From the NCBI GenBank assembly GCA_008632985.1, contig QPGO01000022.1, forward strand, positions 186,001 to 250,000: a stretch of 64,000 bases of DNA, read 5' to 3'. This DNA is from Psammoneis japonica (lineage: Eukaryota). The first letter of the stretch is position 1; every line of letters begins with the position of its first letter. The notes beneath the pieces were generated by a model. It did not search any database, had not been told where the DNA came from, and worked only from the letters and a program-made list of their open reading frames with translations. Below, piece by piece: positions 12,950-54,872 of the stretch. The translations under genes and the position numbers were made by a program.

Positions 12950-14600
12950 GCACCCCCTCCTTGGCCGCAGGCCTAGCTTCTCCCCACGATGTGTGGGGCA
13001 CCTGTTCCATGTTTAGGTTGTTGCATGATTAGAAACTTGGATTTTGAGCTTCTTCTTGGCCCGTTTTGCGGTCAGGCTGCGCAAGGCTGCATCCATCCTT
13101 CGCGCTGTCCTCGCGAATCCCTTTCATCCACCAGCGATGCACTTTGTGAATCCCAATCCACTGCACATGACTCTCATCACTTTGCAGTCCCAGGTTTTGT
13201 TGATTCTGGCTTTTTGAGTTTTGCAAAACCGCATTTTTGAGTGCAGGCATGTGTTGGTTGTGCGCATGTTCCGAGCCACAGGTGCCACGAAGATTCTGGG
13301 TTGAACATGTGATGCTCACCCGACCCACCATTCATGCGTGCAACAGTCAGCACCTTGGTCACTCAAAGACATGGCAACAACAAATTAAATTGCACCAACA
13401 ACAGCGTCAATTTTTCCACATCTCCAGAAGCCAAGCCATGTCATCTGCCTGAATGCAGGCAGTGTTGTGCACGTCAATGTGCCCAAACTGCGGGCGACAC
13501 AAAGGCTCTTTAACCAAACATCGCCGCTCACCCAAACCTTGCCAACCACAACTTGCAAAAGCAACAACACAACCTTGTTCATTCAAATGAATGGAAGCAA
13601 CTTGGGCAGTTGACAAAACTTGCCGACAGCCATCTGGAGCCAGCAAAGAATCAAGAGCCAGTGCACCCAGCCTTCCTCCTCTTCTTCTTCTTCTTGCCTT
13701 TTCAGTTGACCGTTTCCTCAATTTCTCTTTGTGTTCTCTCCAACTTTGCTCTTTCTGTCAGTGGACCATTTGCTTGGTTTCTCTCTTGATCTTTGGCTCT
13801 CTCAATCTCCAGCCCTCTCGAACGATCTTGAAGTCCACACCACCTCTCCACCAACTGAAATCTGCAATGGATGTGATTGTGCCAAATGCGAGAAATCCCC
13901 ATCATTTTCTTCTGCCACTGCTTTTGAATGGAAGGACACAGAAAACAGCGAGTGAGTGAGATGCGACAACATGGATCAAGAGCAGGTCAAGAAAGTCTGA
14001 AGTGCTGCAGAACCTTCATGAAAAGGGCACCATTGAGAGCACCTCCATCGGTCACCAGACTGGAGAAGAAGCACTCCATGTGCTTCAACACTTTGCAGAC
14101 AAGCAGCCCATCATCAGTTGCACGTCACTGTCTGTGAGCACTTGGCCCAAATGAAACAATCCCATCGCACTTCCATGCTGCGTTGCAAAGCATCATTCTT
14201 TTCATTTCAATTCGAGGCATGCTGTTGCACTCACACAAGAAGAAGCACACATGGGGGGGGGGATGCAAAGAACAAATTCCCATCACATCTTTAATTCAAT
14301 GAGAGCCCAATGTCTGATGGGTGTGCAAGGGTGTGCAAGAACACAAGATGACTCACTTTTGCAGAACAACTTTTCGCCAACAAACCCACGAAGTCAAGTG
14401 GAGGGGCAAACAGCAATTCGTGTGCCTTGTGAACACGTGGGCGCAGTCAGTCTGGTTTGATGTGACAGCCATTTTGAAACCGCCGATTTTGCATTTTGAA
14501 CCGAAATTGTGGGCGTTAGCAACGACTTTGGATGCATGTACCGGCATGGTAAATGGCAAGCAGGGTTACAGTGCATGTCTTGTCCGAACCATGCGACGTC
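12950..14600. mobile_element. Degenerate repeat-derived segment (TpA- and CpG-depleted), family not identified
   Basis: Abrupt switch to TG/CA-rich, TA-poor sequence, like the Copia block. No intact ORF or termini recognised. Boundaries are approximate. Confidence 0.45.
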
Positions 14601-29517: not shown

Positions 29518-29933
29518 NNNNNNNNNNNNNNNNNNNNNNNNNNNNNNNNNNNNNNNNNNNNNNNNNNNNNNNNNNNNNNNNNNNNNNNNNNNNNNNNNNN
29601 NNNNNNNNNNNNNNNNNNNNNNNNNNNNNNNNNNNNNNNNNNNNNNNNNNNNNNNNNNNNNNNNNNNNNNNNNNNNNNNNNNNNNNNNNNNNNNNNNNNN
29701 NNNNNNNNNNNNNNNNNNNNNNNNNNNNNNNNNNNNNNNNNNNNNNNNNNNNNNNNNNNNNNNNNNNNNNNNNNNNNNNNNNNNNNNNNNNNNNNNNNNN
29801 NNNNNNNNNNNNNNNNNNNNNNNNNNNNNNNNNNNNNNNNNNNNNNNNNNNNNNNNNNNNNNNNNNNNNNNNNNNNNNNNNNNNNNNNNNNNNNNNNNNN
29901 NNNNNNNNNNNNNNNNNNNNNNNNNNNNNNNNN
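29518..29933. other. Assembly gap (416 N)
   Basis: Run of N bases. Confidence 1.
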
Positions 29934-30047
29934 GCTTGTTGCCAACACTTCTGTTTTTCAACGAACAGCTGAACTGAATCAACTGAACAGCGTGAACTGC
30001 ATCCAATCGACATCAGTAGAGAAGAAGTTGCCCGTCCCAAGAAAAAC

Positions 30048-34479: not shown

Positions 34480-35538
34480 TCACTGCAGCGCTCCCTCTTC
34501 AAGAACGTTAATCATGGAGAACACCTTTCCCTCTGATTCTGTTCTCAACTTCTTCGCCAGAAACTTGACCGCGTCAGCGGTCCCTTCGGCATAAACAGTG
34601 CGACCAGCGACGTTGTGTTGCAACTGGAAATTCACGGATCCGTCCGCACTTGTGAGAGTGTAGGTATGAAAAGCATGACCCATTAGAGCATCCTCTGGAA
34701 CTCCGAATTTCACTGCCTCCTCATCGTTACGTATCATTTCAATATCGTCGTATTCGAATTCGTCATCACTGAGTTTCTTGAGCGAATCGATTACAGCCTT
34801 GGCAGTCCCCGATGTGTCGGCCTTTGTCTTTTGATGACTCTCTACAACTTTGAGTTTGTACCCCGCAAAAGCCGAAGGGTACTTGGACGCCAATTCCTCC
34901 AATGCCAACTGCATGGCAACAATTTGTTTGCCCATGTTTGGAGCGATCACTGCAAAGTGTTTTGCACCCTCCACATCGGCCATTAGCTTTTCTCGGTCAC
35001 CACCCGTTGTTCCCATGACAAAGGGCAGTTTATTCTTTACGTAGAACAGAGCATTCCCGTTCACCGCTGAGGGATGTGTGTAATCGATCGCCAGCAAATT
35101 GTCTGGACCAGCTGCTGTCATGAGTCCCTCAATGGCTGATTCCATCTCCTCCGTTTCGGTGGACGGCACAAGTCGAACATCAGCTTTCTTCTCTGTCACA
35201 GGATCAAACACTGTAATAGTGCATGGGTCAATATCAGGTCCTGTCATGGCAACGGGAGAAAGCTGAAGACCCTTGCGCAAACAGGCTTCAGCGGCCGCCG
35301 TTGCCATTGGACCTGGCATGCCGTTCACCATGATGCGCACCTCCGACAAGTCTTCTGAGGCGCTCATTTGCAAACCAGTCCTTGTCGACCTGGAGAAGGG
35401 ATTTTGAGAAGGCGACCACGACGACAGGAAGGCGCACGATTGTTCAATGATCAGCATTAAACACGCCGTAAGGACTAAAAGTGAACGGTTCGTCATGGTA
35501 GATGTCTTCTTTTTCACCTCTACCGGTAGGAACGACAT
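34480..35538 (-). CDS. dapB: 4-hydroxy-tetrahydrodipicolinate reductase, plastid-targeted (start may be 35496)
   Basis: Signal peptide plus SCAF motif, IMVNGMPGPMA, DYTHPSAVN, FVMGTTGGDRE, ESHQKTKADTSGTAKA and GHAFHTY. Confidence 0.92.
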   Translation of the reverse strand: MSFLPVEVKKKTSTMTNRSLLVLTACLMLIIEQSCAFLSSWSPSQNPFSRSTRTGLQMSASEDLSEVRIMVNGMPGPMATAAAEACLRKGLQLSPVAMTGPDIDPCTITVFDPVTEKKADVRLVPSTETEEMESAIEGLMTAAGPDNLLAIDYTHPSAVNGNALFYVKNKLPFVMGTTGGDREKLMADVEGAKHFAVIAPNMGKQIVAMQLALEELASKYPSAFAGYKLKVVESHQKTKADTSGTAKAVIDSLKKLSDDEFEYDDIEMIRNDEEAVKFGVPEDALMGHAFHTYTLTSADGSVNFQLQHNVAGRTVYAEGTADAVKFLAKKLRTESEGKVFSMINVLEEGALQ

Positions 35539-36037: not shown

Positions 36038-39000
36038 TTAAAGCAATTCTTCTTGGTCTTCGTCGTCAGAATCACTATCAGCCGAAGAGTTCTGAAGCTT
36101 TGATTTGAGGTCATCGAGATCGCGCCTTTTCTGAACGTAAATAGAGTCGAGATATTCTTTTGTAACGTTCCGCTCTTTAAGCTCCTTCTTCTTTACTTCA
36201 ATGCTCTTCCCTAACAAACCGGCGTTTGGACAAACCAGCCGAATCAAGATCTTCAGCTCATCTCCCTTCAACGTCTCGTACTCACCGTACTGAGGCGTAC
36301 TGGAGCGAAGTGCATCAAACTCGTCGAGCGCTTTCGATTGCTTGGCGATGTCAGCCTTCAGTTTCGTTTGCTCTGCCTCTCCCACCTCGATCATCCTTGT
36401 CTTGGTACGGCGCACAGCAACAATTGCATTCTCACCTCGTGCTGTCTTGACAACGGCTCCACGTCTCTTCTTTTTGGGCGGTTGTTCGGAAGCACCCGCT
36501 GCGCCGGCAACCGCATCCTTTCGCTTGAAACCGGCAAGCACGTTCGATGTCGTTGTACGCGTTGCGACACTGATAGCGTTTACACCACTGCTATTCACCT
36601 CTACTTCGAAGACATCAATCATGGCGACATGTGGTTTCTCAATCATCTCTTTCAATTGCAAAAAATCCTGAAAAGAAAAGCTCTCACCAATTGTTTTCCC
36701 TTGTTGTTGTTGACACCAGACTTTAAACATTTCGTCGCGCTGTTCCGAAGCTTTCCGTTTTGCAGCCTCGATTGATGCTGTCTGCTCTCTCTGTCTCTGT
36801 TGCCTTTTGTGGAGATGCTCTCTTCTGGTTGCAGCAGGATCTTTCAGAAATTTTTTGGGGTCGACGCGGCACTTAGAAGCATCCAACAAATCGCTCTCGG
36901 TCACGATACGCTCAGTCCCATCTTCCAGCACCAGCTTCCAATTCGGATTGGTTTGGAGCGTAACAACTCCATCAAAGGTTGCACCAGTGGGATCAAAAAA
37001 TTGCACTTCAATGGCATCAATGAAAGGTCGCACCGAACGCAGCACCGTTGCAGTCCAATCTCGCGCGCGCTCCTCTTTCGTCTTTTCCGCCGCACGAGGC
37101 AGTGACGCCGCATCAGGCAAGTGATGTTGTACAAGTTGCATGGCCAGTTCTTCTTGTTCGCTTGTTGGCTCTGGTTTCTCACTCTTGCACTCTGTGTCCT
37201 CTCTCCATTTTGCCAACATTGATTTTGCCACTGGCATCGCGACATCCAAGTCGTGAAGCAGTGGGTCGTCGTCGTCGTCGTTGTAGCCCTCGCAGAGAAT
37301 ATTTCTCGATCTCTCAACAATGGCAATTCGTTTGTCAGGTGGGAGAGGCTCAATTTCCCACTCTTGTTTTTGTTGCTCTTGTGCTTGTTCCTCCTTTTCT
37401 CTTTGCGATTCCAGGGCGAGGTCGTGTGCGGTCCCCATTGTCTCTAGCACTTCCGTCCACGCCACGCAATCGGGGTTGATTGGCTCGAGTCCGGTTTCCT
37501 TCCAGGCACTTGTGCAGACATTGCTTCCTTTAGACAAGAGCTCAGCCTTCTCGGCTTCAAGGCAAGCCTTCCAAGCAGCGAGAAAAACTCGGTTTATCAA
37601 CCGCACTCCTTTTGCAAGACCGCTCTCGTACCTGACCCTCTTTGCCTCTTCCTCGATCTTGGCATGCAGGCGTTTGTTGACACCTCGATCGTTTGGTTGC
37701 GTCCAGATGGATGTGTGAGATGGTAGAAAAAAACAATGGACGTTGTGATCCCAGAAATGCTTGAGAGCGGCGCAGCACCAACGCGAGGCGTGTCCGTCGA
37801 GCAGCAGCATCGTGGCGTTCCTCATTCGTTCCTCGTCTGTCGCGCAACTTGTTTTTCCTTGACCCTTGGGAAGGTTCTTGCAGTGATGAATGGCAAAGTC
37901 GAGCATTGCATCTTTTTCCATACTTCCGTTTGTGGTTGTCCGGACATCAAAGCCGTGCGGGTTGTCGCTGAACTTGGCGTTGGGGTTTGGATTTGCTGGG
38001 GCGAGGCCGTCAAGATACATTTCACCAACAGCAGTCTCGTCTTCTGGAGCATTAACGCGGTTGGAATCATTGGTCTTCTTCTTGGATTTGGAGGCATGTA
38101 CAAGGAACGGCGGCGGGGCACCTTCAATTTCTTGGCACGGAATTGCGTTGACGCCTGCGGAGGCGGACGGGCACAAGGCAAGTGCATTCAACAATTATCC
38201 AGAGCAAGGTAGCAACAACAAATAAAGTAGCACCCCTTTACTTACCATCTGCTCTAGAAGTGATACACATGGTAAGATGATGGCTCATCTTGCCGTCGCC
38301 CTCGGGAGTCCTCTGAAAAATGCGTGACTTCTTCATGACCTCCTTGAAGACTGGCACTTTCTTGCGGCGTTTCGCAGCATCCATTGCAACTTCATCCATG
38401 TTGTATTTTCTAAAAGCCTCAAGCTTCTCAATGCAATCAACATCAATTTTACCTGTGGCATGGAGATGCTTCACAAAAGACTGCAACTTTGCAAAATGTG
38501 CGTCCCGAACCTCTTTCGTCCCCTGCTCAGCACGAATTGGGTCCAAACTTGAAGCTGAAGCTAGTTTTGCTAGCTTTGGATGGCGTTGGAGCATGGAGTA
38601 CACAAAATAATCAGACACAGATGGTTTTTCACGCTCATCAATGTGCTCATTAGCCAAGTCATTCACAATGTCAAGAATGGTGTCCTTTGATGCTCCGCAT
38701 CCCATCTGACCCAACCAGCAGCAAACTTCAACAACATGCTGCTCTTCGTCGTCAGTAAGAATTCTATTCCCCTTGTGCAAGGCAGTGATTGCCTCCTTTG
38801 CCTTCTTATCTTTCGCTCCAAAACAGTTGCAAATGGCTTCTTGTGCTTTCTCCACTGAAGCACTTTCTTGATGAAGACGACGAAGTCCACTTTGTCCCCA
38901 TGCCCGATTCAGGGTGTTGTAACGGGTGCTGTGCTCGGGGTGGACATTCTTGCAGTAATAGCTTAAAGAAACTCCATTGCCGTTTGCATAGAAGTCCATA

Positions 39001-39173
39001 AGAATATGAAACTTCAAAGACTTCTCCACACGTGGGCATTTCGTTCCCTTTGCTCTACCGGCAGGGGCCCTATGGTAGTAGGTGTGCGGTGATCGTGGAG
39101 CCGTGGGGAACACGAAAGCAAGGTTCCGAATGCCATCTGATGGAATGGGCCGGTGAGGAGTCGGGATTCCCAT
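36038..39173 (-). mobile_element. pogo/Tigger-type DDE_1 transposase gene (about 1015 aa; intron 38155-38245); termini not found
   Basis: CENP-B-like HTH region (LTDDEEQHVVEVC), triad YNMDE / LLLDGHASR / TQPNDRGVN and FLPSHTS. A GT-AG intron joins ORFs 38238-39173 and 36038-38194 in frame (ADG|VNAIP). Confidence 0.8.
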
Positions 39174-39340
39174 GTATCTTTCTTCTACGTAGGCGTCAGT
39201 AGTAACTTTCGCAAGTACGTCATTCAGTTTGGAATGTCAACAAAGATCCGTAAATTTCAATTCTGGAAAAGACGTGGTCCTGGTGGTCGGTGGCGGTGCG
39301 GTGATTCATTGCCATATTGCCGTCACTTTTTGTCGTCGCC

Positions 39341-40338
39341 ATGAAGATTTCAGCGCTTTCTCTCTTTTCCGTTCTCGGCGGTGCCGCAGCGTTTGCGCCA
39401 TCCTTTGGGATTCCACGGGCTGCGTCCACCGAGCTCTCCATGGCCAGGAAGCCTTTCATTTCTGGAAACTGGAAGCTAAACCCGAAGACTCGTGACGAGG
39501 CTGAGACGCTAGCTACCGACATTGCTGCTGCCATTGGAGACGACTCCCCTGATGCCGATGTTGCTCTCTTTGTCCCGTATGTGTTTATTGAGGCAGCCAT
39601 GAAGGCCGTTGACGGAAAGATTTCCATTGGCGCTGAGGTGCGTTGTTTCTGGTGTGGTATTATGGGTGTTTCGTGGAAAGCCGGATCGGTGGTTCTGTTG
39701 CTGTTGTTGTCGCTACCCTTGTTGCAATTCTTGGACCTTTCTCAACCATTCTTAATTTCATTACTTAGGGTGTCTGTCCTGAAATTGCTGGAGCCTTTAC
39801 CGGAGCTGTTGCTGCTCCAATGCTCAAGTCCATTGGCGTGCAATGGGCGTTGGCCGGCCATTCCGAGCGCAGGGTTATCTTTGGTGAATCTGACGAATAC
39901 ATTAATGGACAGTGTCTAAAGCTCATGGATGAGGGCATGTCCGTAATGCTTTGTATCGGTGAGAGTGAATCCGAATATGAACAGGATTTGGCTGGAGCCG
40001 TCTGTGCCGTTCAGCTCAAGAAGGGACTTGCTGGTATCAGTAAGGAGGACATGTCCCGTGTTGCCATTGCGTACGAACCCGTTTGGGCCATTGGAACCGG
40101 AAAGGTGGCCACTCCCGAGACGGCCCAAAGCGTTCATGCTACATGCCGATCCATTCTCGCCGACATTTACGATCAGGAAACAGCCGACAGCACTCGTATC
40201 TTGTACGGCGGGAGCGTCACTCCCGATTCGGTGGACGAGCTCATGGCACAGCCTGATATTGACGGCGCTCTTGTTGGAGGAGCGTCCCTGGATGCGTCCA
40301 AGTTTGGCCGCATTATTAACTTTGAGACTACGGATTGA
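39341..40338 (+). CDS. TPI: Triosephosphate isomerase, plastid-targeted; intron 39638-39768
   Basis: Signal plus AAAFAP, FISGNWKLN, GAFTG, GHSERR, AYEPVWAIGTG, YGGSV and DGALVGGASL. Confidence 0.97.
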
Positions 40339-42457
40339 TCGTGTTAGCTACGTTTTTGCATGAGCAAGGAAGCTATCCAAGCCTGTAAACATTTTCACAC
40401 GAGTCTCCAACGCATTTCATCCTGTAGTGCTGTACCGTACTTGTGTTTCATATCACTGCTTTGTGCTGTAGCACTCTTTATCGTGTTCTTGACGCGTACC
40501 TAGTTGTTTGAGCTTGTAAAACACACGATAGGTACGTTCAATTTTTTTTTTGGTGGAATTGACTCAAAAGTAAAGGATTATGTTTGAGAACAAAGCAAGA
40601 CAGTTTAAGACATGACTCGTTCCAATCAAATCTGCTCCGTGCTGGCGTAAATTCCCACCGCGGTGCCGGACTCGAATGCCTTTTCCTTCGCAGGTGGTGT
40701 CCCTCGCGGCCATCACTTATACTGTCACAATCACAAGAAGGCAACAAGCAATGCACCGTGATGCCACACGTGCGGCGCCGGGTCATTGATGGTTGTCATG
40801 ATTTCCTCTCACTGCTCTGTGGTTTTCTTCCTGCAGACCCAGACATTGTCACACCTTGTCAAGTGGCACACCAACTCCAAGATGGCAAGAAAGAAACCAC
40901 AGGTTGCACTGGGAGGTGCGAATCATGCTGTCTCAAGACTCCTGAGGCCCCACCAAGATGCTGAATGATGGTGTTGACAATCTGCACTGTTGGCCTTGTT
41001 TTGCAGCTTGTGTTTTGCCTGCAGCACAGCAACGATGTTGATTGAGGCTGAAAAAAACAGATGACTCCAACATGAGTGCAAGAACAACAAGGACAAGCTT
41101 CACAAGAAATGGTGGCAGCCAGCAACCTTGGCACCAGACAACGAGGTTGGCATCTGAGTTGTTGCCAAAGCAGATGGAAAAATCAAGATGGGAGTGTGGC
41201 TCTCCACAACTGCTTTGTGCATGTGCCAGAGGAGAAAGAGTTCATTGACACCAAAGCTCTGGATCTGGGTGGCCTGGCCCCATGCACCCCAGCCAGCTGT
41301 TCTTGATGACAGGAGATTGGCAACCAACCTTGCCATGGTGGTGCAAGTGGCATGAAAAAGCAGCAGCAGCATGGCCACCACTCTTTGAGCTCAAGTGTGG
41401 GATGTCATGTCACAGAGGCAGCAACAGAAGTGGTTGATTGCTTTCTTGTCCTTGAAAGTCCCAGATGCCTTGGCACACAAGCTCAAATTTACCACTTGCT
41501 TTTCAGCTTGTTTCTTGGCCCATCACCTCATCATCAAAGGGAGGCTTTGTCAAGGACAATCAAGCTGTTAAGCATGTCAGGGAAGACTGCTCTCTGACAG
41601 TCTTGAAAATTCCATGAAGACAACCCCACACAACAACAAGCCTCCCAGCAGCAAGAAAAACACTTGCTGCCTTTGCCACTTGCTGAGTTCAGGAAATGTT
41701 GCTGGTGGTGGGCAAGCCCACAACAAATGAAAGCCAAAAGGTTGTTGGAAACACTGCAGCAAAATTGTGCAGGTGAAACCAGAGCCATCACCAACCACAG
41801 AGTCCATCTTGCAAAAGGCGCATGTGCAATGTCCTGCAGCAGCTGCTGGGCTGGCTTTTTTCAGTGTGAGCCAACAACACACCATTGTTGCAGCTGAGCA
41901 CAGCTCCACTGCTGCTTTTAAAAAAGGGCACAGCAAGCAACTGGTTCCAAGAAATGGCCAATGCAGATGAGAGCATTGACAAACAACCTTCCCCAGCCAT
42001 GTTTTGTTTCTTGTCTGATCTCAACTGAGTGAGCTTTGCATCATCATGTCATCATGTTGTCATTTGTCACTGCTTTTGCCAAAGAGATGTTGCACCAAAG
42101 TGACACTTCAATGCCATCAAGGCAGAATGTTGAGTGTTTTTAGAGCTCTTGTTGGCACACAGAGCTGTCTTGGCAAGCAATCAACAGAGCTGCCCTGGTG
42201 CTCTTGCCATTGCTGGCATTTTCCTGCCACAGTCTGCCCTTGGATTGGCGACAACAGTGACATGGACGGTGACTCTTTGGCCATTGTTGTTTGTGTGAGG
42301 TTGATTGTGTGGGGTGACAATGGTTGTGCTGGCTGTTTTGTTTGTCAGCAATGCCATCACAAAATGGAGAAATGCAAGTTGGCTGCCACCTTCACAGCCT
42401 GGACAACCTTGCTGATGAGTGGCATGAATGCATTGACAACCTGGGAAGGTTGTTCAT

Positions 42458-42776
42458 TGTTGAAACAGCTGGAAGATGGGAAATTTGTGAGACCTGGACA
42501 TGTTGAAGAAAAAATGCTGTTGCTCCTGTGATGTGGAAGATGCAGCAACTCTTCATCATTGAAGTTCTTGCATCATCACCAATCTCTCCTGTCTCTTTGT
42601 TCATTTCATTCTTTGAAGTGAATCATGTGCTTTGTTGCAATCACATGATTCTGTCACATTGGCGCCACTGGGTGTCCATTGCATTGCAAGTTTGAAGTTT
42701 GCATCAACAACTTTGGGGCAACCTGCACAGCTGCTGCAAGCAGCCAATGCAAGCACAACAAGTGGTGCAGGAAGCC
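42458..42776 (+). repeat. 5' LTR-like direct repeat (partner 48964-49284)
   Basis: Starts TGTTG. Shares ctggaagatgg, gatgtggaagatgcagc, gtgaatcat, gccactggg.gtccattgca and caagtttgaag with the 3' copy. Confidence 0.8.
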
Positions 42777-45700
42777 TTGCAGGACTCCCTTGTCATGGTG
42801 GCATTAAATTGCTGGTTTAACCCACTCCAAAGAGTTGTTGGCACAACATTGGTGGTGCTCAACAATGCCACTCCACCTGCAGTTGACTGATTGCTCAGAA
42901 CATGTGCAATGAGTGGCAGAGGAAGTGGCAGAAGTGAAGCTGCATCCTCTGCCCCCCATTGACTGCTGCACCAAGCAAATGAAGCAGAAAGTGCAAGGCA
43001 GTCCTGCTTGCATGATGATTGGGGACAAGCCAATCAAGCCATTCAAGCTGATCCAGTCACAAGCTTTTAACTCAATGAGAGGTCAACACAAGCTTCGCAC
43101 ACTTGCCAGGTCCCTGCAGAACATGCTCAACATGAATTAACAAGAGTGCAAGTTGCTGAACAACTGCCTGTCAATGTTCAAGAACCAGCAAGATGCAATG
43201 TCTTGGCAAGGAGATGCCAAACACCAAATTCATTTTGAAGACCAAGGAACACAAGGATGGTGCAAAACAATGGAGCAGCATGAGATGAAGGAGGCAGCAT
43301 TCAAGACATGGATGACATGCCTGTTTGTAGAAAAAAGCAACAACTGCCATTGCAAGAGCTTGAAGAAGAACTTTGTCAAGGATTGCAGCATGAGATGGGA
43401 TGAATGTCCAAAGACCCTTGAGAATTCAATGGATGCACTGCCAGATCACCTGAAAGACAACAATCCTTGAAAGAGACACAACAAGAGGAATGATGAATGC
43501 ACGAATGTCAAGAACAAGAACAAGAGGTCCAATCATGTGAAGGACCAAAGCCATGCCCAGAGAGGCAATTAAAGTGACACCATGGTGTGCCGCTGTTGTG
43601 GGAAACTGAGTCACAAGTCCCCAAACTGCAAGCATTGAAGTGACATCACATTTGACAATTGGCTCAAAAACACTGGCAAGAAACTGGATGCCACCAGGGG
43701 ACAGAGTCATGCACAGAGATAAGATGAGGACATCTTGTTGGCAGACAGCAGCAGTGCTGACATTTGCACCAGCTGATGATCCAATTGACATCAACCCGCC
43801 CATTCAAGCCAAAGCAGAAGTGCTGTGTGGCACGCCTGACTGCAGCTGGCAAATGAGAAACCAGAAGCAAGCACAAACCCAAGTCAATTGAGACATCAGC
43901 ATGGATGAGATCATCCTTGACAATGGCTCTGCCCTCAGCACAGCAGCAAGCTGGAGATCAGCGCACAATGTGCGGCTGGCCAAGGTCAAGATTGACCTGT
44001 CCATGAGTGCAGGAGAGGGCACTCCAGACAAAGACTGCACCATGCCCAGATGGAGGGAGTGAAGCTCAGATCACAGAGTGCAACAGCCAAACATCCTCAG
44101 CTCAAAGGACATCAACAGCAAGCACTGCATTGCATGTGACAACCAAGCAGCAGATGAGTTCCAACTGCCAGACAAAAAGACTGGCAAGCAAGTTACGGTG
44201 TTCAAAGTTCACGACATTGGACTGCACACATTTGCACAAAGGCAGAAGGTCTTTGACCATGCAAAAGATCTCCAAGAAAGTGAGGTGCATGTGAGCATGC
44301 TGTTGAAGAAGAAGAAGAAGAAGAAGAAACTGGAGAGGAGGAGCAACGTGAAGCACAGGAGTGCATCAGCAGCTGTTGTTTTGATGGTGGAGCAGAACTC
44401 AGCAGACCACATGAAGATGCTGCACAGCAAAGCTGGAGCCCCCAGTGTGAAAGATTTCAAGTTGTTTTTATGATCAAACTAGGCAAAGAACTTGTCCATC
44501 ATGCTGGAAGACCTGGACAGAATGGCAGACATTTGGGGACCACCTGGTGATGCAACAAAAAGAAAGGCCAAACAAGTGCATCAATCCCATGAGAGGAAGA
44601 ATGACATTGTTGCCACACCACCTGAGATGCATGAGAAACAGTGAGATGGTGAAATCCTCTGTGTTGATGTCACACTTGGAAACACATCAACACACACAAT
44701 GCATTGGACACAATGCTGTGCCAGTGCAACATGGCTTTGTTCAAAATTGACTTTGTCAAGCATTGAGATCCCAAGTTCAAGGACATGCTGGAGAGGAAGT
44801 CACAGATGGTGTGAAACTGGAACTGACATCTACAACCACTGGTGGCCATGTTCCCAAAGTCCAATGCTGAAACATTGTGAGGCCTTCAAGGAACAAACTT
44901 GAGCCATGTTGTGCCACCTGCTGTGCAAGGTGATGCCCAAGCTGATGTGCAAGCATGCTGTGATTGAGAATGCCATGATGGCATGCATGCACTCAGAAAG
45001 AAGAAATTTCCAACATGTGCAGTCCACACACTGAAAACAACCTGATGAACATCACATGGGCATGTGTGGCATCATTGACAGAACATGCCTGCAACAACAT
45101 TTTGACATTCCCAAGGGTGACCACTGCACTGTGAACCTGCACGTGGGGAAACTGCTGAACCCCTGCAAGTGTGCTGCCACAACTCTGATCAATGCATGCA
45201 CACAAGGCTCAAGCAGTTGAGAAGATGGTCTCATCACAAGGCATCAAAGACTTCAAATTTGTGAGCAAATGTAGAGACAACCTGTGCAATGCCAGTTGGA
45301 CTGCAGGAGTGGACAACAACAAAAACTGCAGCAACAGCAAAGATGAAAGCAAGGACAAAAACAAGAATGAGCACAACAATGCCAACTGCACAACCAAGTC
45401 AGAAGACAAGGACTGCAAAGATGAGCCTGGCTTAGATGAAGAATGTGAAAAGCAAGCAAAATGCCAGCAGACAACAGATCCAGGCCTGATCAATGGCACA
45501 AGGACTGCAAAGACAAAGAACAAGAAGACTGCAAACAAGTCAAAGAGTCAGAATGAGACAGTGCACCTGCAGATGAGAAAAGAAGAGAAGCAAAACTGAC
45601 AGAAATTGCAAGTGAGATGCCAAGAAGAGTGAGAAAGAGCAGCACTGAGCTCAGCACATCCACAATGTGAAGTCACATGAACACAGAGAATGGAAAGTTC

Positions 45701-47529
45701 AATTTGCAGGAGAGCAGCCATCACAGAAATGCAACAACAGCAGAACAAACTTGACTGCTGCCATCACTTGAGGACAAACATCAGCCTCAATCCAGATGAC
45801 TGCATCAAATGCAATGCAGAAACAGGAGCGGCACTGGCACAATTCATGTGTGAGATGAATGGCTGGCTTTGATTGGGAAAGGGCATTTTCTTTGCCCAGA
45901 AGCACCTGTTGCACAAAGGCCTGAAAGCATTTGACCAGAGGGGGCATGTTGCATTGGAGAAGGAGATGAAACAACTCCATGACAGAGTGTGCTTTACAAC
46001 AACATTGACTGAACATGTGACTCTGACTGAGAGGACCAAGGCTGTGATCACCTCAATGTTCCCAATGGAGAAGCAAGACAGCCACACAAAAGAGCAAATG
46101 GCCTGCAATGGCAAACCAACCAGAGAATGGCTGGACTGGAATGAATCAGCTGGCCCAACTGCATCATTGGAAGGAACACTGATGACAGCTGTCATTGATG
46201 CTGTGGAAGAGTGCAACACAAGGAGTGCCAGTGCATTTGTGCAGAGTGCAGAGTGCAGACACAGATGCCAGAGCCCAAGGAAGGCAAAGACTGGATCATG
46301 ATGAAGATTGCAGGAGTGTTGGTTGACATGCCAGTGAGCATTGATCCCAGAAAAGTTCTCCATGTGCAAGTCATTGGAGACACATGTGGCATGTTGATCA
46401 CAGCTCTGCTGTGGCACAAGCAATTTTGGAAGGAAGACTTGGAAAACAATTGGGTTTGAGTTCAACCCATGCAACCCATGCATTGCCAAATGATTGGCTC
46501 AACAGCAAGCAGCACACTGTCTCTGTTTTCATGTCGACAACCTGTGTTGTCAAGCCACAAAAATTTCAAGGCTGGCCTGACAAGGTGTGCAGAAACCATG
46601 GCAAAGTTGTTGCACCAAGAGGAAAGAAACATGACCACCTTGGCATGATTGTGGACTTCAGCCACAAGAGCAAGGCAAAGGTTGACATGACCAGCTGCAC
46701 ACTCACAAGATGGTTGGTCAGTTTCCAGAAAAGATCAAGAGCACAGACACTGCCCTGACACCAGCAGGGGAGAACCTGTTTGACACTGGTGGCACTGGAC
46801 TGGCCACCAACAGAGAAAGTAAAGACACCCCACATGTGGGCAATCAAGGGGCTGTTTCTTTCCAAGAGGGCCCATGGACACACACCCAATCATTGCAGCA
46901 TCATGCACACAGGTCAGAGAGCATGCTGACAAGGATTGGGGAAAGCCAGTCTGTTGTGTCAAGCATTTGAACCCAATGTGAGACAAAGCAGCTGCATTGG
47001 TGAGCACAAAGAACTGCCAAATCATCAACAAAGATGGTGTGTGGATGCTTCATTTTCAGTGCACCTGGACTTCAAGAGCCACACAAGAGGAGTTGTGACC
47101 ACATGGGTGATGGAGCAGTCATGCAAGCCACATCAAAGTGCAGCAGAAGCTCAACACCCAAAGCAGCACAGAAGCTGAACTTGTGGCAGTCAATGACGCC
47201 ATGTCTGTGATGCTGTGGATGAAGCTGGTCATTGAAAACCAAGGCTGTCCAATTGGCAAGAATGTCCTGCAACATCAGGACAACAACAGCACCACACTGC
47301 TGGAAACCAACAGGCAGAGGAGTGCCAGAACAAGGTCAAGAGCACTCAACATTTAGCATTTCTTCATTGCCAATCAGATCAAGAAGGGCAACCTTAGAGC
47401 ACAGCATTGTGTCCAACCAACGACACAATGCTTGTTGGAAACTTCATGACTGAGCCATTGCAGGGCAAGAAGTTTTAAAAAAATTAAATGAGCCATCATG
47501 GGCTGTGGATGTCAAGCATGACGACAGAA

Positions 47530-47940
47530 GCATTTCCTGTTTGTGATGTCAAATGAGAGTTCTGACACATGTGGTTGAAAGATCCCTGCAACCCAGAAGA
47601 TGTGGCCAACCCTGTTGTTCAGCCAATCACAACCCACAGCAACCATGATGTTGACAATTGCACATGCTGGCTTTGCAAGAGAGCCACCAGAACATGACGT
47701 CAGTGAGTTTGATGAGCTGCGGGATGCATTCCAGGAGCATTTCCTGTTTGTGATGTCAGATGAGAGTTCTGACACATGTGGTTGAAAGATCCCTGCAACC
47801 CAGAAGATGTGGTTGGCCCCTGTTGTTCAGCAATCACAACCCACAGCAACCATGATGTTGATGACTGCACATGCTGGCATTGCAAGACAGCTGCCAGCTG
47901 CCAGAACATGTCAGCAAGTTTGATGAGCTGCACGATGCAC
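47530..47940 (+). repeat. Tandem duplication, period about 207 bp
   Basis: gcatttcctgtttgtgatgtca.atgagagttctgacacatgtggttgaaagatccctgcaacccagaagatgtgg occurs at 47530 and 47737. Confidence 0.9.
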
Positions 47941-48963
47941 TCATGCAATGTTGGCTGCAACATTGTTGGGGTGAGTTCAAGAGATTCTTGAATGAGGTGT
48001 CAGAAGATTTGACACTGGAGTGGTGTGGAATGTGGATGGCATCTTTGCACACATTGCCACCACTGGACCCCCGAGCATTTGCCAAGAGGTGACAGATGAA
48101 AACCTGCTGATGCTTGAACTCAGGAAGGATGGAAAGGTTGTCTGGACCATTGCCTGCAGAATGACAGAGAGGTGCAAGAAAGAACATGAAAAAAGATGGC
48201 ATCAGTTGTGGGCAGTGATGCACAAGAGACAATGCAGCATGTGCACACAGAAAAGTTGGGGCAGGCCAATGAAGCACAACATCAGTGCATGTCGCCACTG
48301 TTGTGCCAATGATCTCCCCACTTGACAATGAAGAAAAAGTGAGGACCACAGCCATGGATCATGCAAGAGAAGCACACAAGACCAAGAAATGTTGGCAGAT
48401 TGTTGGAGGTCAAGGCTTGGAATGTCACAAAAGGAAGGAACTCAACCATGGCAGCTCATCTGCAGCATTGATCACCATGGGACATGTGGAGTGCTTGTGG
48501 AATGCACTTCCAATCAACCCATGGAGATTGAAGAGTGGCAATTTGACCCAATGCAAGACAACAATGGTGCTGTCTGTGATGCATTAAGTTGGTGCAATTT
48601 TTTTAATGTCAAGTTATCAAGGTAAACCCAAACAGGATTGGACATGTCACAACATGGAGCCCTCTAATTTGGACCAATTGTGCATCAACAATTGGGTGAA
48701 AGCCCAATCAGAGATGTGGGTCTGCATGGCAGGGCTGTGAAAGAGAGGACTCATTGTGCTTGTGTGAAGTAATTTGTGGATTGGCAAGCAGGATCACAAA
48801 TGTGTTTGATGATGTGCTTGATGACCGTCACTGCAGATTTTGTGATCTGGAGGACAGCAGCATTGAGATGGCTGATGCACCTGGTGAGTCTGTTGTTGAC
48901 ATGCCACAAGGAAGTGCAGCACCTGAGCACTTTGGCAGAACATTGATGCAAGCAGCAGGAGTG

Positions 48964-49284
48964 TGTTGGAATCATGTCTGGAAGATGGTGGGAAACACAA
49001 GAGACCCAGATGCACTGAAAAAAGACATTGGCCATTGCTCTTGATGTGGAAGATGCAGCGACTCTTTGTGGTTGAAGTTGCATTGTCACTGATCTCTCCC
49101 ATCTCTTTGTCTGCCTCACTCTTTGGAGTGAATCATTTGGTTTGTCATGATTGTGCAATTCTGTGTTGTTGGTGCCACTGGGGGTCCATTGCACCACAAG
49201 TTTGAAGCTTGCATGGACAACTTCCAGGCAACCCACAGCCACTGCAAGTGGCCAAGGCAAGCACAACGAGTGGCACAGGAAGCC
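48964..49284 (+). repeat. 3' LTR-like direct repeat (partner 42458-42776)
   Basis: Follows a PPT-like motif, starts TGTTGG and aligns with 42458-42776. Confidence 0.8.
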
Positions 49285-51914
49285 CTCTGGTGACATTTTA
49301 ACTCTTTGTTTGCCAGAACGGATTAGAATGGGTTTTTTCACATGGCGTGCGGATGCACACAATTTTTCACGACATGCACCCACCACACACCACAATGGTG
49401 GTGACGCCAATGGCCGCAACAATGCAGCTGCACTCACCGTTGTTGCAGAACCACCATGGTGGTTGATGTCCTCCAATTTCCAACAGTGTTTTTGATTTCA
49501 ATGTCGTGGTTGCTGTCATTGCCAATTTTTCCTCTGCAACAATTTGACTGTGTTCACATGCGGCTGCTGTTGTTGCCGCTGTCTGAGACATTGCAGCCGT
49601 GAGTGTGCCTTGAATTGCAGAAGGGGGGCAAAAGAGATGCAGGTGAGCTTTTTTTTCAGCATCAAAGCAAGTTGCATTGCTGTCTCTTGCATTGTTGTTT
49701 GTCACTCAATGCATTTGAAGCAATGCCTTGGCATTGCGTGCCAACAAACATTGTCTGTCTTTTCATTGTTTGCTTGTTGCATCAGAATTTTTTCAGAGCA
49801 CACCGTTGATGCCATGGCAGCATCACAGCATTGCCTTTTTCTCTGATTGATGCTTTGGTGTGGATGCCAAAGGAATGGCGAGGGTGCACACAGAGCAGCC
49901 AGCCACAGCATCCTCAGTTGCAGCAGCGGCTGAGCAGAGTGTCAGCAAAAGGGTTTTGTGCTGTCTCTAAGAGTCCACAGCTTGAGATGAAATCAGGCAA
50001 GTTGCCTTTTTTGTTCTTGACAAACTGTCAATCACCCACCCACAAAATGTGACAAAACACAGAAGAAGAGAAGAAATCAGAGTGCATGCTGCGGTTTGCC
50101 AAAAAGAAATGCGTGGGCGGGATGCACGCGTCATCACTGACACAACTGTGGTGCGCAGGGACTTCGACTCACCTCCACAACTTGCTGTCATCTTCCCAAT
50201 GCCTTTAAATTTGTGAGTGACAAAAACAATTGTCAGCATTGATGAAAAAGCCAGCACTCTTGCGCACCTGAATGTCCCATCGACGGCACTTGGCCGTCAA
50301 ATTGTCAAGCCCCCAGCAGGATTGCCTGCAAGAATGCGTCGACAGGATGAACAGCACATTGGCAAACAAACATGACGCGCCAATGCACCAAGCAGCTTCC
50401 ATGCCGTAGATTTGCTTGAACTTAAGCAGGCATTTGAACACGGTGTTCCAAATGCAGAAACCACTCAAAGCCAAGCAAATCTAGGTTCGCCTCACGGTCA
50501 GACAACAGATTCTTTCTGGGGCCCTGCGTTTCTTGTCGCATTGCTGGGTCTTTGCCAATTCTCTGCATTCACAAAAGGAGCACGTTGTGTGACTGCCAGA
50601 ATCTGTTGTGGGATGTCCTGATGAGGCATGAGCCTCATGTTTTGTGGAGAGTGCAAGGCAACTCGTCGGTTGCTCATAGTCTGAAGACAACTGTTCCCTG
50701 CTGAAAAGCCAAAACAAGTGCCACGACAAGCAATGTCAGCTGAGGGAATGTGCAATGCAAAAAAAGACATCCCGACACAACAGAGCAACAGTTCTGTGCT
50801 GCACTCTAACCCATTTGTTTAACATCCCACCAGATTCCACCAGTGGGACATTGAAAATGACAGCACCATTTCTGTTGACATTGGTCCTCTGTTGCAATGC
50901 ATGAAAGCTGATGCGAGCCGGTGAGAAACCACAATCAAAAGCAAAACAAGAAACCTGTCCAAGCTGTCACAGTGCACCTTGCCACATTAAAAATCACACC
51001 ATGTGGTGCACAGAGACATGCTTGCTGTCATCCACGTCCATCATGCTCACACCACAAACGACCGTGGTTGCGCACTGAAAAGCATGAAAAAGCAGCATGA
51101 CAAGTGAGGGTTAGCTGAGGGATCATGGCACATGAAAAATGACACTCCAATGCAACAAAACAATGCTGTTGTGTTTTGTGCTTGCACAGTCATTTGACAC
51201 TCCACCAGATTCTGTCCTGCGGATGACGAAAACGACAAACCGATTCTGTTGCTGACAGTCGGTCACACTGTTGCGATGCAAGAAATGCCGCTGCAACAGC
51301 AGGTGAGTGAAGAAGTGAAAAAACAATGCCAACACAACAACAAATCAAACCAAGCTGTCATGTGACACCTTGCTGTGTTGATGATCACCCCGCATGGCAT
51401 GGGGGTGCCATCCATTGCAATGACAATGGCAACACCCCATTTGTTGTGTTGTTGATGGTGGTGATGTTTCGCCGCACGCCAAAAAAAAATCGCACGCGTG
51501 TCGCTGTGGCAAAGAAAGAGTTAACTTGCCAGCTCAACAGTCATCTGTCACTGTGTGGATGCACACAGCAAATGCAGCCTTGTTGACAGACATGTTCCAG
51601 CTCTGCTGTCCATTTGGCAAAACAGCTTCCAAGCTGAAAACAGCAGCGCCATCTGTCTCACAGCTGCCTGCAGTTCTTGGGCACTGAAGCTTCATCAGCC
51701 CATGCACCTGAGAGAGTGACTTGCACAGATGGTCCAGGAGGAGGCAGCACTGGCCCCATTCATTGTGTGGTCATCAGGAGATGGAAAGAACTGTCTCAGC
51801 AGAATTCATGCAGACACCATCATTTTGCTTGGGAGACTCAAAAAGTTTGTTGTTGAATGTTTTAGCAGGAAAACAGCTGGGGTGCATTCCAGCCCCAGGC
51901 AGAAGGGCTCCATG

Positions 51915-52795
51915 TGACATTGAGCTGACAAAGTTGCATGTTGGTGAACAAGCCAACAATTGACAACAGAAAAAGAGGCAATTTTGCAGCTGAACAGGCT
52001 TGCCCATGCTCAAAGTGTGTTGTTTGTGATTTGCCTGGGTGTGCTCTGCAGACATTGAAAAATGTGCCCAACACCAAAGCCCTTTTTGTTCTCATGAATG
52101 GGTGTGACAAAATGCCTTGCTGGCTTTGCAAGGAACAAAAACAGCTTTTCTGCAAAAGAGCAACCACAGAAATGCACACAACACAGAGTGCTTGGTGTGC
52201 AATCTAAAAATGTTCATGTCACACAGTCTCCAGCAGTGCAAAACCCCACCCAGAGCTGGAGCTGGAGTGCGTGTTGCTTGTGTGTCCCACAAACAATTGA
52301 TCTTTAGAAAGGATGTGGAAGACTCAATCTTTTGATGATGAGAGTTGGCTCTCACTCAACCAAGTGTGAAATTTTGTCCTGGAAATGATTGTGCATGACA
52401 AGCTTTCCTCACATGATGGGTGGCAAAAAAAGCAAGCAGCTGTTGCCAAATGGGTGGCAGGCAAGACCTCAGTCACACTGGCTGCTTTGTTGTGACATGA
52501 ATGTTTTTGACAATGTGCTTGTGCACACACACACCCATGTGCACTCTTTTGTGAAATTGTTCCATGCTCCCTGTTTTGTGAAGCCAAAGGCTTTTTAGCA
52601 CCACCATTTGCAAAAACACAAATGGGCTGTGGGTGCATTCTTTGGTGTCTTCAGAGTGTGCCTGGGCAAATCAGCAAAGGCATGCTTCAAGCATGGGTGA
52701 GCCCACTTTGTCACATGGCTGCTTCTTTTCTTCTGTTGGTGATCATCGCCCCATTTGCCACCTTTGACAACTTGGCTGTGGGAGCTCATGTGCGC
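51915..52795. repeat. Diverged inverted repeat, arms about 51915-52240 and 52470-52795
   Basis: The reverse complement of 51963-52072 (..cagagcacacccaggcaaatca..ctttgagcatgggcaagcc..) aligns with 52630-52738 (..cagagtgtgcctgggcaaatca..cttcaagcatgggtgagcc..). Confidence 0.75.
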
Positions 52796-53970
52796 TGTGC
52801 TCGAAGAACGAGTGCAAACAAAAGTGGAGCAAATCACAAAAAGTGGAAAATTGTGAGGTTGAATTTTGTTCTTTGATTTCTTTGGGTTTCTCTGAAGGAG
52901 CTCTCAATGGCCTGGACTGTTTGCGCTGCTTTTGCAGACAACAAAAGGCCTCATGGAGAATCGTCTCATCATGAAAACAGATTTGGTCTGGGTGTGGTTG
53001 GTGTTGACATCTCATGTGTCAAAACATTGTCTGCCGCCAATTGTGTTTGCAATTTTTGACATCTGATCAAATCTGTGTGACCAATGCATCCACAATTGTG
53101 GCATGATTAACACACACAATGACGTGCAACTGTGAATGTGCACATTGCTTTCTTTTCTGTGCGCGACAACGCACGCTGCACATGTGCAGACTTCTGTGGG
53201 CACCCAGTGCTGGCCCCGTGCACAGCTCCACCTGCTGCAGCTGGAGGCAGCGCATCACCAGCACTGAGAAGAAGAAACACATCATCAAGAGCCAGCATCA
53301 CCACGGCCAGTGTCAAGAAATGCACACACACGACTGATGACGACCCTCAGCCAAAGAAACAAGCAAAAGAGGAAGAGGGCTGAGAGGAGGAAGGAGCAAG
53401 GCTGACAGAGTTGTGGAATTTTTGAAAGTCAACCAAAGAAAGTCAAAACATCTGAAAAAAAGCTGAGGAGGGCAGTGATTGATTTGGTGAGTTGTGTGGT
53501 TGGCCCTCCCTGCTTTGCTGGGCTCGCCCATGTGGCGGCCACACAGCCACCCACCATCCCCTGCTGGAAGAGCGGCGCTGTTGCGCCTGGTCAACATTCT
53601 GCTTTAAAAAGGAGAAGAACATTGCCATGGTGGAGGAAACAAAATTTGCCAAGGCCAGCAGGAAAGCCAAGTGTTTGAAGTGGCAGCGCTGCGCAGCCAC
53701 AGAAAAGTGCTTGGTGCCAGATGGCAGCCAAGACAAGAGTTGGCCCACTTTCCACTTGGGTCATTCTTCATGAAAAGCACTGGGTCTCTAACAAAGAGCT
53801 TGCAGCTGGTGGCAAAGAGAAAATGAGTGTGTGGCACCACTTGTGAGGTCCCTTGCTGACAGCCTTGAAATCCTCAGTTGCGACCTTGCGCTGGAAAAGC
53901 AGCCAGTCAAAGACTGTCTGACAAATGTTTTCAGAGAATCAACAATTACTTGACCATCGAGAGGTATCCG

Positions 53971-54043
53971 AGGGGTTTAGCTCAGTTGGTAGAGCGCGTG
54001 CTTAGCATGCACGAGGTCGGGTGTTCGAATCATCCAATCTCCA
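53971..54043 (+). tRNA. tRNA-Ala (anticodon AGC)
   Basis: D arm GCTCagttggtaGAGC, anticodon arm CGTGC-ttAGCat-GCACG, T arm GGGTG-ttcgaat-CATCC, acceptor 3' AATCTCC-A with G3:U70. The first pair is mismatched, possibly from a lost G in the homopolymer. Confidence 0.93.
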
Positions 54044-54045
54044 GC

Positions 54046-54050
54046 TTTTT
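54046..54050 (+). terminator. RNA polymerase III terminator (T5) of tRNA-Ala
   Basis: TTTTT begins three bases after the discriminator base. Confidence 0.7.
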
Positions 54051-54544
54051 GGTGTGGCATTTCCACTCAAAATTTTGGCAATTGCGACTGTCGCGCTTTA
54101 CTTGAAGCTGCTGCGCATGCATGTATTGTAGTGCTGTGCTCATTTTTTATTCCTTTCATTTGCGACACGATTCCTACGTCCTTCATTATTTTTCGTCAAT
54201 GCTCTCTCACACACCGGTACATACTCCTTACCTTTGCCTTCCTTCTGACTACAGTATGTATGTGGCAAGCGCGATTGTCGCGCAGATTCTCACGGGCCGT
54301 GCGGTTGGTTTCAGGCGTCTGTGCTTTGCGCTTCAGGTAGCGCGGTAGCGGTGCGGCGCGGTACAGTATCCCATACAGTGTAGACTACCGGTAGGCAGTG
54401 CGTGTACTGTACTCTAATCTCTTCTCTCTAGAGTAGTAGGGCCTACGGTACTCTCTAGAGAGTAGAGAGAGTAGAGGGTAGTACTCTCGCTCTGCAGAAC
54501 ATAGAGTAGGTAGATAGATAGATCGCGTGAGTATCCAGTATGAA

Positions 54545-54723
54545 TAGTAGTCGCTTGCTTACTCTTGTTGTGGCACAGTAGACTACTAGAGTAAGAGTGT
54601 GAAAGCAACAACATATCTTTCAAGGACATGTATCATTCAGTTAGCTGGTATGTAGTAGTCGCTTGCTTGCTTTTGTTGCGGCGCAGTAAGATAGTGAAAG
54701 CACGACATATGTATCAAGGACAT
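54545..54723 (+). repeat. Short direct repeat pair (54545-54629 and 54653-54723)
   Basis: tagtagtcgcttgctt.ct.ttgttg.ggc.cagta...gtgaaagca..acatat.t.tcaaggacat occurs twice. Confidence 0.85.
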
Positions 54724-54872
54724 TCCCATCACGCTGAAAAGGAAATTATTGTTCAACGGCGTTCATTTTTTTCATTGTTAGGTGTCAGATAACCTGACAC
54801 TTCAAGCCCACATCGATTTACTACAAATTGCTTCTTTTTCTACACGTATTTATGTTTTGATCCCTCACAAGT

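Follow-up and report, generated by a model that had tools for sequence, protein, structure and literature searches.

Why does a retrotransposon carry histidine or cysteine at position after position where its relatives conserve tyrosine? This question is raised by a degenerate Ty1/Copia retrotransposon, similar to the CoDi elements of diatoms, in a 64-kb stretch of contig QPGO01000022.1 of Psammoneis japonica (positions 186,001 to 250,000; the whole stretch is called the window, and its own numbering is used below). The internal region of the element lies at 42967-47506 on the + strand, with gag at about 42967-43635 and pol at about 43883-47506. An inspection of the letters alone (the sequence-only reading) had listed nine Copia motifs between 43300 and 47470 in which a remembered tyrosine was replaced by cysteine or histidine, and had concluded that TA had changed to TG or CA on both strands. 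We found that the loss of tyrosine at conserved columns is complete and that it is the coding trace of TA erasure in three sharply bounded blocks of the window. These blocks probably record a transposon-restricted hypermutation in place, resembling fungal repeat-induced point mutation (RIP) but with a new, A:T>G:C specificity.

The identity of the element was established through its relatives. With its longest open piece of reverse transcriptase (RT), 142 amino acids (aa) at 45873-46298 (+), as the query, a representative protein library yielded 791 proteins at E<=1e-3, of which 146 also passed E<=1e-10, and a second search from protein P0006 gave 120 relatives, one of them labelled as a Ty1/Copia polyprotein and one derived from a diatom transcriptome. 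The long relatives P0149, P0081 and P0021 exceed the Pfam gathering score for RVT_2. Full-length relatives (1100-1460 aa), in which Pfam names just RVT_2, are colinear with the window from 42967 or 43357 to 47506. The tblastn matches of the relatives to the window are colinear over 42967-47503 on the + strand, use all three frames and reach an E-value of 1e-48, and frameshift-aware alignment of the 25 best-scoring relatives shows 34-46% identity with 14-25 frame changes. No Pfam family reaches its threshold in the three forward frames of the element read with X at the stops; membership in Ty1/Copia by an RVT_2-type RT thus comes through the relatives, the window's own frames having no direct Pfam match. 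With this identity and these frame changes, the element is a long-dead Copia-type retrotransposon lying in a transposon graveyard. A (GAA)n run at 44294-44336 within it is read as poly-Lys/Glu. Elsewhere in the window, weak tblastn matches to as many as six Copia relatives fall at 987-1388 (+) (for example P0149 residues 690-810, 24% identity, E 1e-4); this segment is of normal composition, lies between two genes and may be a chance match or an old fragment.

We then investigated the conserved tyrosine columns. Relatives of at least 500 aa (n=129) were aligned to 42701-47700 by a protein-to-DNA, frameshift-aware dynamic programme (BLOSUM62, gap 10/1, frameshift 12), and 127 were used, two that scored below 300 being dropped. 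Columns covered by at least 40 relatives and with a majority residue of at least 60% were taken as well covered, which gave 397 columns. At the 16 well-covered Tyr columns, the element reads His (CAY) nine times, Cys (TGY) seven times and Tyr (TAY) not once, a stronger result than the sequence-only reading had claimed. Replacement by a random mix of residues is not seen there, as His and Cys are the only residues found. Just eight of the 365 columns with a majority other than Tyr, Cys or His read Cys or His in the element, and the other conserved residues are largely kept: His at 10/10 columns, Trp 7/7, Gln 11/12, Asn 11/13, Cys 5/6, Lys 25/32, Phe 18/23 and Met 10/13. The sparsely covered protease/integrase part (3-39 relatives) adds 16 Tyr-majority columns, where the element has five His, five Cys, six other residues (R, S, F, S, M, I) and again no Tyr. 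With two gag columns included, His:Cys is 14:14 across all Tyr columns. Across 269 proteins, these 16 columns comprise 2454 cells, of which 2121 hold Tyr in the relatives themselves; 108 cells hold Cys or His, and 38 of these come from ten nearly Tyr-free database proteins that look hypermutated. Alignment scoring is not the source of the pattern, because BLOSUM62 rewards Tyr-His (+2) but penalizes Tyr-Cys (-2).

All nine motifs are present on the + strand. WCVDASF has TGT at 47038, where the family has Tyr in 95/123 relatives; HDHLGM has CAC at 46636 (123/127), LLWHKQF has CAC at 46415 (123/127), NPCNPC has TGC at 46470 (126/127), KVLHVQV has CAT at 46361 (123/127), CGML has TGT at 46385 (126/127), ACNGKPT has TGC at 46104 (107/127) and *HFFI has CAT at 47357 (117/121). 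Eight of the nine therefore fall on family Tyr columns, and the ninth, DECPKTL in gag (TGT at 43405), is covered by two relatives only, with Tyr in both. The consensus had also been remembered correctly: the majority of 34 relatives reads WYVDASF, HDYLGM, LLWYxKF, NPYDPC, KVLYVQV, LYGML, VYNGKPT and NIRYFF. One further candidate was rejected. The His of the catalytic motif could be taken for a former Tyr (YVDD to HVDN), but the family itself reads FHVDD, so this His is ancestral and is not evidence of the change.

The direction TA to TG/CA is also recorded in other codons of the element that contained TA. Conserved Ile became Thr six times (ACA/ACT) and Met once, Leu became Pro four times (CCA/CCT) and Val became Ala three times. 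Across codon boundaries, T|ANN to T|GNN gave Ser>Gly, Thr>Ala, Met>Val and Arg>Gly. Conserved Arg is kept at 6 of 22 columns and is otherwise read as Gln (5), Lys (4), Cys (2) and once each as Trp, Gly, Ser, His and stop; Thr>Met (4) and Asp>Asn (6) are also found at conserved columns. Parsimony was applied to the 142 conserved columns that changed: for 114 of them, a single substitution in a codon for the majority residue is enough. Among these single-step changes, A>G accounts for 14.8 (13.8 with a 5' T), T>C for 24 (21 with a 3' A), C>T for 9.8 (7.5 with a 3' G), G>A for 32 (20 with a 5' C) and transversions, which have no target context, for 33.3. A:T>G:C changes in TA context thus make up 34.8 of 114, in agreement with the argument of the sequence-only reading that CpG decay cannot yield the Tyr replacements.

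A mass balance against intact relatives gives the same direction. Metagenomic loci of such relatives were taken as the best 80 of 535 confirmed matches, a selection in which mutated copies would be ranked out. Within these 80 loci, the median observed/expected ratio (O/E) is 0.65 for TA (0.45-1.09) and 0.88 for CG (0.21-1.29), whereas the element has 0.06 for both, and none of the 3024 windows of 500 bp from these loci is free of TA. The coding strand of the RT-RNase H part was compared with 36 of the 80 loci whose match spans about 1.7 kb or more (not the complete set of such loci; L048, for example, was left out). Relative to these 36, the element lost 42.8 TA and 40.5 CG per kb (83 in all) and gained 26.6 TG and 62.5 CA (89), so that loss and gain nearly close.

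We then asked how far this signature extends. The window as a whole is gene-dense with long exons, 48% G+C, a TA O/E of about 0.55 and a CG O/E of about 1.0. Counting TA in 500-bp steps, and taking exact limits from the last or first normal TA cluster, we found three stretches with 0-6 TA per 500 bp versus about 20 in the remaining window, and with TG and CA counts about doubled. The element lies in block 2 (40721-53946, 13.2 kb), situated between a triosephosphate isomerase (TIM) gene and a tRNA-Ala gene. In block 2 both TA and CG are erased: the dinucleotide counts are TA 49, CG 121, TG 1512 and CA 1573, the O/E is about 0.05 for TpA and CpG (0.04-0.08 for TpA) and about 2 for TpG and CpA, and the G+C content is 46-49%. 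On the left, the last normal TA cluster ends at 40720, after the TIM gene (TIM domain at 39305-39916); on the right, normal TA restarts at 53947, before the tRNA gene. Block 1 (13031-14516, 1.5 kb) holds three TA, each within TTAA, and about 40 CG, about half of its CpG being lost. Over 1.78 kb, block 3 (62221-64000, running past the window end) has just two TA, one within TTAA, and keeps about half of its CpG. The block edges are sharp to about 150 bp. The extent given by the sequence-only reading, 43300-47470, thus does contain the signature, but the signature is not confined to it: it fills the whole 13.2-kb block and two others.

The erasure is local and not a genome-wide bias, because neighbouring DNA is unaffected. 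TA density in the intergenic DNA that adjoins block 1 is normal, at 30-40 per kb, and an intact DDE_1 transposase open reading frame (ORF) of 717 aa at 36038-38191 on the - strand (Pfam DDE_1, E 6e-6, above the cut-off), 2.5 kb from block 2, is not TA-erased (TA O/E 0.27). It is one of two long, intact ORFs at 36038-39236 (-), the other being of 331 aa; they lie 1.5-2.5 kb from the block and have TA O/E of 0.27 and 0.48, normal CpG and ordinary TA contexts. Pfam searches of 61 long ORFs from the blocks and of the RT piece returned only chance-level rows under the cut-off, and block sequence outside the Copia element had no tblastx matches to the 80 loci of relatives; these searches assigned nothing in blocks 1 and 3 or in 47.5-53.9 kb.

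The few TA that survive reveal a sequence rule. Of 54 surviving TA in the three blocks, 23 are in TTAA and 15 in CTAA/TTAG, and none is in ATAT, GTAC or ATAC/GTAT. By comparison, TTAA accounts for 3.9% of TA in the remaining window and for 6.4% in the relatives (binomial p 1e-18 and 5e-14). Expressed as density relative to the rest of the window, TTAA stands at 0.94, TA with one T-before or A-after flank at 0.11, and TA with neither flank at 0.0175, close to 0.11 squared. Four context classes were used to fit a model with independent hits on the two strands, the hit rate depending on which base precedes the T. The fitted rates are 3.3 for A, 2.6 for G, 1.2 for C and 0.03 for T. For the other six classes, the expected and observed counts are 0.3/0, 0.8/1, 0.1/0, 2.3/4, 2.5/2 and 0.3/0. 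The model still fits, and the flanks still rank A>=G>C>T, when the AT-richer relatives serve as the baseline. The surviving TTAA sites are scattered through all blocks, and TCA/TGA is the least inflated product class. Since TTAA is largely exempt, the target is a trinucleotide, VTA>VCA (V, any base but T) or, equivalently, TAB>TGB (B, any base but A), with a specificity like that of an enzyme.

Duplicated sequences within block 2 date the change relative to the divergence of copies. Two repeats resembling long terminal repeats (LTRs) lie in direct orientation at 42527-42779 and 49040-49290 (+), the downstream copy 1.5 kb past the pol end (self-blastn, 42529-42776 versus 49042-49284, 76.6% identity). 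In their aligned core (columns 88-342), 57 of 249 positions are mismatched, and 30 of these fall within 15 TG<>CA doublets, where column shuffling predicts 1.09 and none of 2000 shuffles reaches 15. Directly after pol, the units of a 207-bp tandem duplication (47525-47942, +) differ by four such doublets versus 0.23 expected. Doublets of this kind are expected when each copy resolves an ancestral TA or CG independently; as CG-derived doublets are mixed in, their flanks are uninformative on the TTAA rule. No target-site duplication, primer-binding site or polypurine tract was recognised at the repeat pair.

The block is reproduced in an independent DNA run (X1), where its depth equals that of the flanking genes; the eight contig pieces listed cover about 8.4 kb and differ from the window at 44 letters (0.5%). 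Among the 40 of 121 X1 differences listed, which form 35 events, three are TG<>CA doublets, four touch a rare TA and eight touch CG. Taken together with the doublets of the repeat pair and the tandem units and with the equal His and Cys counts, these differences indicate that the change acted on duplex DNA, on both strands and after the copies had diverged. The claim of the sequence-only reading that both strands were hit is thereby borne out, and the process was probably still running recently. In the same run, the summed contig depth over 52175-53108 is 2500-3100 versus about 60 for flanking single-copy DNA (up to about 50-fold), which makes this part of block 2 a member of a family of tens of copies at >=90% likeness; other parts of the block are single-copy.

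CpG loss in the same blocks follows a different course. CpG survival is lowest in 40.7-49 kb (about 0.07), intermediate in 49-53.9 kb (about 0.33) and highest in blocks 1 and 3 (about 0.5). The last two blocks have lost about 97% of their TA and only about half of their CG, whereas 40.7-49 kb has lost both. As TA loss is near saturation everywhere while CpG survival varies, TA erasure is not a by-product of CpG decay and was faster or earlier. GCGC is kept at about background density (0.90-0.95) in 13031-14516, 49001-53946 and 62221-64000, where other CpG contexts stand at 0.1-0.6; in 40.7-49 kb its survival is 0.16, all CpG contexts being lost there. This exemption may tentatively be regarded as a CpG flank rule parallel to that of TTAA, at 4-14 sites per block.

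The direction and context of the change, its presence on both strands, its confinement to blocks with sharp limits and its action after the copies had diverged are shown by these observations; from them we infer a dedicated, transposon-targeted defence of the RIP kind. On either strand, the T of 5'-VTA becomes C, equivalent to the A of 5'-TAB becoming G on the opposite strand, and each TA ends as CA or TG. TTAA largely survives, as it presents a disfavoured flank on both strands. Methylated-CpG decay, a second and separately clocked process, also feeds TG and CA. The outcome is the erasure of Tyr codons (to His or Cys), of TAA and TAG stops and of other TA-containing signals, with the G+C content being raised and not lowered. 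The most likely chemistry would be conversion of A to hypoxanthine, read as G, by a candidate deaminase with a 5'-T preference, either TadA/ADAT-like or toxin-derived; alternatively, the thymine of TpA may be modified or oxidised and then mispair with G. We favour adenine deamination because TadA/ADAT-type enzymes require a 5' U/T and favour a following pyrimidine, and because stramenopiles carry families of uncharacterised deaminases, as described in PMC3239186, among them a CDD/CDA-like SAM-Tudor group. The RID-like cytosine methyltransferase DNMT4, present in some diatoms and related to RID according to PMC9998398, is a poor candidate for the TA arm, because it acts on cytosine and is reported there as absent from one model pennate diatom. 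A bolder proposal, which we put forward tentatively, is a diatom defence at the DNA level opposite in direction to fungal RIP, with a deaminase or thymine-modifying enzyme recruited to silenced transposons that would convert A:T to G:C at TAB/VTA on both strands and spare TTAA; this could be the first natural, heritable, adenine-directed hypermutation system of DNA.

Comparison with known systems shows both likeness and difference. Like RIP in Neurospora and other ascomycetes, the process produced transitions with a dinucleotide preference in transposon or repeat DNA, on both strands of a duplex and within sharp limits, and it killed coding capacity. Unlike it, TA and the TAA/TAG stops are destroyed here, the A:T pair is mutated and G+C does not fall, whereas RIP converts CpA to TpA and creates TA, stops and AT-rich isochores. 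The excess of TpA and the AT-rich DNA that mark RIP are accordingly absent, with a TpA O/E of 0.04-0.08, a G+C content of 46-49% and the direction TA>TG/CA. Decay of methylated CpG, including the TCG-targeted hypermutation of basidiomycetes, shares the CG>TG/CA changes seen in the same blocks, but it cannot alter a TAY codon, and in blocks 1 and 3 CpG loss is about 50% versus 97% for TA; CpG decay by itself would leave neither TA-context A:T>G:C changes nor an element with all Tyr codons gone. APOBEC3 editing of endogenous retroviruses and LTR elements is similar in that LTR retroelements are inactivated and the result is fixed in the genome, a deaminase acting there and being a candidate here. 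It differs in acting as C>U on minus-strand cDNA, seen as G>A on one strand, whereas here A:T>G:C changes fall equally on both strands and after copy divergence. Neither the 14:14 ratio of His to Cys nor the 15 discordant doublets between the flanking repeats agrees with editing of one strand of RNA or cDNA.

Systems that act on adenine or thymine offer the closest chemistry. A-to-I editing by ADAR in animals and by TAD2/TAD3 in fungal perithecia has the same outcome, A>G, as do base editors derived from TadA. TadA/ADAT enzymes act on an A after U (position 34 after U33), and the bacterial target is UACG. This preference matches the absolute 5'-T requirement found here, with a following pyrimidine favoured as in UACG. 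However, RNA is the substrate of these enzymes, engineered forms working on the single strands of R-loops, and the target here is DNA; we know of no natural, heritable, transposon-directed adenine deamination at the DNA level. Base J of kinetoplastids and 5-hydroxymethyluracil of dinoflagellates are enzymatic thymine modifications that favour TpA, and T>C would be possible if the product mispairs. They are known neither as strongly mutagenic nor from diatoms, and base J occurs in telomeric TTA, a context spared here. No account of transposons, from diatoms or elsewhere, being specifically stripped of TA turned up in the full-text literature, including the available text of PMC2806351, PMC9998398, PMC3239186, PMC6604790 and bioRxiv 10.1101/2025.10.24.684338, subscription papers and supplements lying outside this scope.

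Passive regional decay would explain the blocks with no dedicated machinery: over a very long time, old, methylated, silent DNA would gather context-dependent damage or repair errors at TpA and 5-methyl-CpG. The many indels of the element and the non-target divergence of about 11% in the LTR-like pair agree with such a history. Diatom transposons are CpG-methylated (PMC2806351, PMC9998398), and the CpG loss seen here is an ordinary outcome of methylation. In addition, residual TA and CG are over-represented among the X1 differences (4 + 8 of the 35 events listed, for less than 1.5% of dinucleotides), which fits a continuing elevated rate. We nevertheless consider this explanation unlikely. Per-strand TA survival is about 0.1 versus 78-100% retention of conserved non-target residues, so the TA rate was tens of times the background. 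TA loss does not follow CpG loss between blocks, adjoining intergenic DNA is not TA-poor, and survival as s versus s squared fits a finite-dose decay, not an equilibrium of creation and destruction, which would give 2:1. Mutation accumulation in a model pennate diatom, which is not established as the species of this window, showed a 2.21-fold GC>AT bias, and the available text of PMC6604790 names CG, CC and TG as mutable contexts and does not name TA.

Editing before integration would act on the RNA genome or on single-stranded cDNA (A>I by an ADAR/ADAT-like enzyme, C>U by an APOBEC-like one), with copies arriving dead. The very sharp block edges suit it, and so does the ratio of CA to TG gained on the coding strand against the 36 relatives, about 70:30, as for deamination of minus-strand cDNA. 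We regard it as quite improbable, however, since the Tyr codons divide evenly into 14 His and 14 Cys, the flanking repeats and tandem units resolved the same sites differently, and TG<>CA doublets separate two haplotypes or strains at one locus. Moreover, the signature is common to the whole composite 13.2-kb block and to two unrelated blocks. That there is no mutation signature at all, the blocks being a sequencing or assembly artefact or foreign DNA that natively avoids TA and CG, has nothing in its favour beyond the odd composition and is extremely improbable. In run X1 the same sequence appears at flanking-gene depth, about 8.4 kb of it differing by 0.5%. Codons for conserved Tyr, Arg, Ile, Leu and Val changed exactly as the dinucleotide rule predicts, and the balance of losses and gains against relatives closes. 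As the frames are broken, selection cannot have shaped the composition.

Several points weigh against hypermutation in place by a dedicated system. A slow process acting over a long time is compatible with the data, because the element is old, with its 14-25 frame changes and about 11% non-doublet divergence between the LTR-like repeats, 10 transversions included. These two repeats of about 250 bp are only putatively the LTRs of a single insertion, and the doublets seen in X1 could be paralogue conversion or contig chimeras. The survival of TTAA depends on the baseline and is about 0.35-0.43 against the AT-richer relatives. Exceptions to the flank rule also occur: two Leu>Ser changes to TCA, at 46053 and 46901, together with one Lys>Glu change, at 47452. 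Finally, CA makes up about 70% of the coding-strand gain in the dinucleotide totals, a hint of strand bias on which we do not rely and of which the codon count of 14:14 shows no sign.

If the hypermutation is as we propose, it would have consequences for genome defence and for annotation. To our knowledge, the known heritable hypermutation directed at transposons (RIP, the TCG mutation of basidiomycetes, APOBEC) all attacks cytosine and drives DNA to A+T. That the A:T pair of TpA is attacked under a clear trinucleotide rule, with one palindrome spared, points to a new kind of enzyme working on DNA. Such an enzyme, be it a natural adenine deaminase of DNA or a mutagenic modifier of thymine, would, if true, be of interest to both genome-defence biology and base-editing technology, and the signature can be tested directly in a group for which genetic tools exist. 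Because the G+C content of the genome is kept, scans based on GC or a RIP index miss such mutated transposons, and the transposon content of diatoms may be underestimated because Pfam no longer recognises the mutated copies. Spurious long ORFs also arise in all six frames, as TGA is the sole remaining stop in block 2: over the two strands of 40500-54500, stop-to-stop ORFs of >=70 aa number 121, which can mislead gene callers.

Tyr-free pseudo-proteins of this kind seem to be already present in public protein collections. Ten RT-related database proteins (P0002, P0019, P0032, P0070, P0082, P0130, P0048, P0108, P0029 and P0100) contain 0-1.3% Tyr and have Cys or His at Tyr columns. They look like ORFs called on other hypermutated copies. 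P0002 has Cys or His at 6/6 of the Tyr columns it covers, and P0100, with four Tyr kept and ten Cys or His among 16 columns, may be an intermediate. No DNA relatives were found for P0100 in genome contigs or for P0002 in viral contigs.

The surroundings of block 2 show ordinary genes and a few minor features. The tRNA-Ala(AGC) gene at 53971-54043 (+), predicted by ARAGORN and matching Rfam RF00005 with 56.4 bits, adjoins the right edge of the block from outside. The DNA to the right of it, at 54400-54730, is very TA-rich (34-37 TA per 500 bp), in contrast to the block, and contains a short, diverged tandem repeat (54538-54629 versus 54648-54723). An assembly gap of 416 N lies within a genic region at about 29520-29940. 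The dihydrodipicolinate reductase gene at 34480-35538, which marks the source as a raphid pennate diatom, encodes a product 70-85% identical to proteins of Seminavis, Cylindrotheca and Nitzschia.

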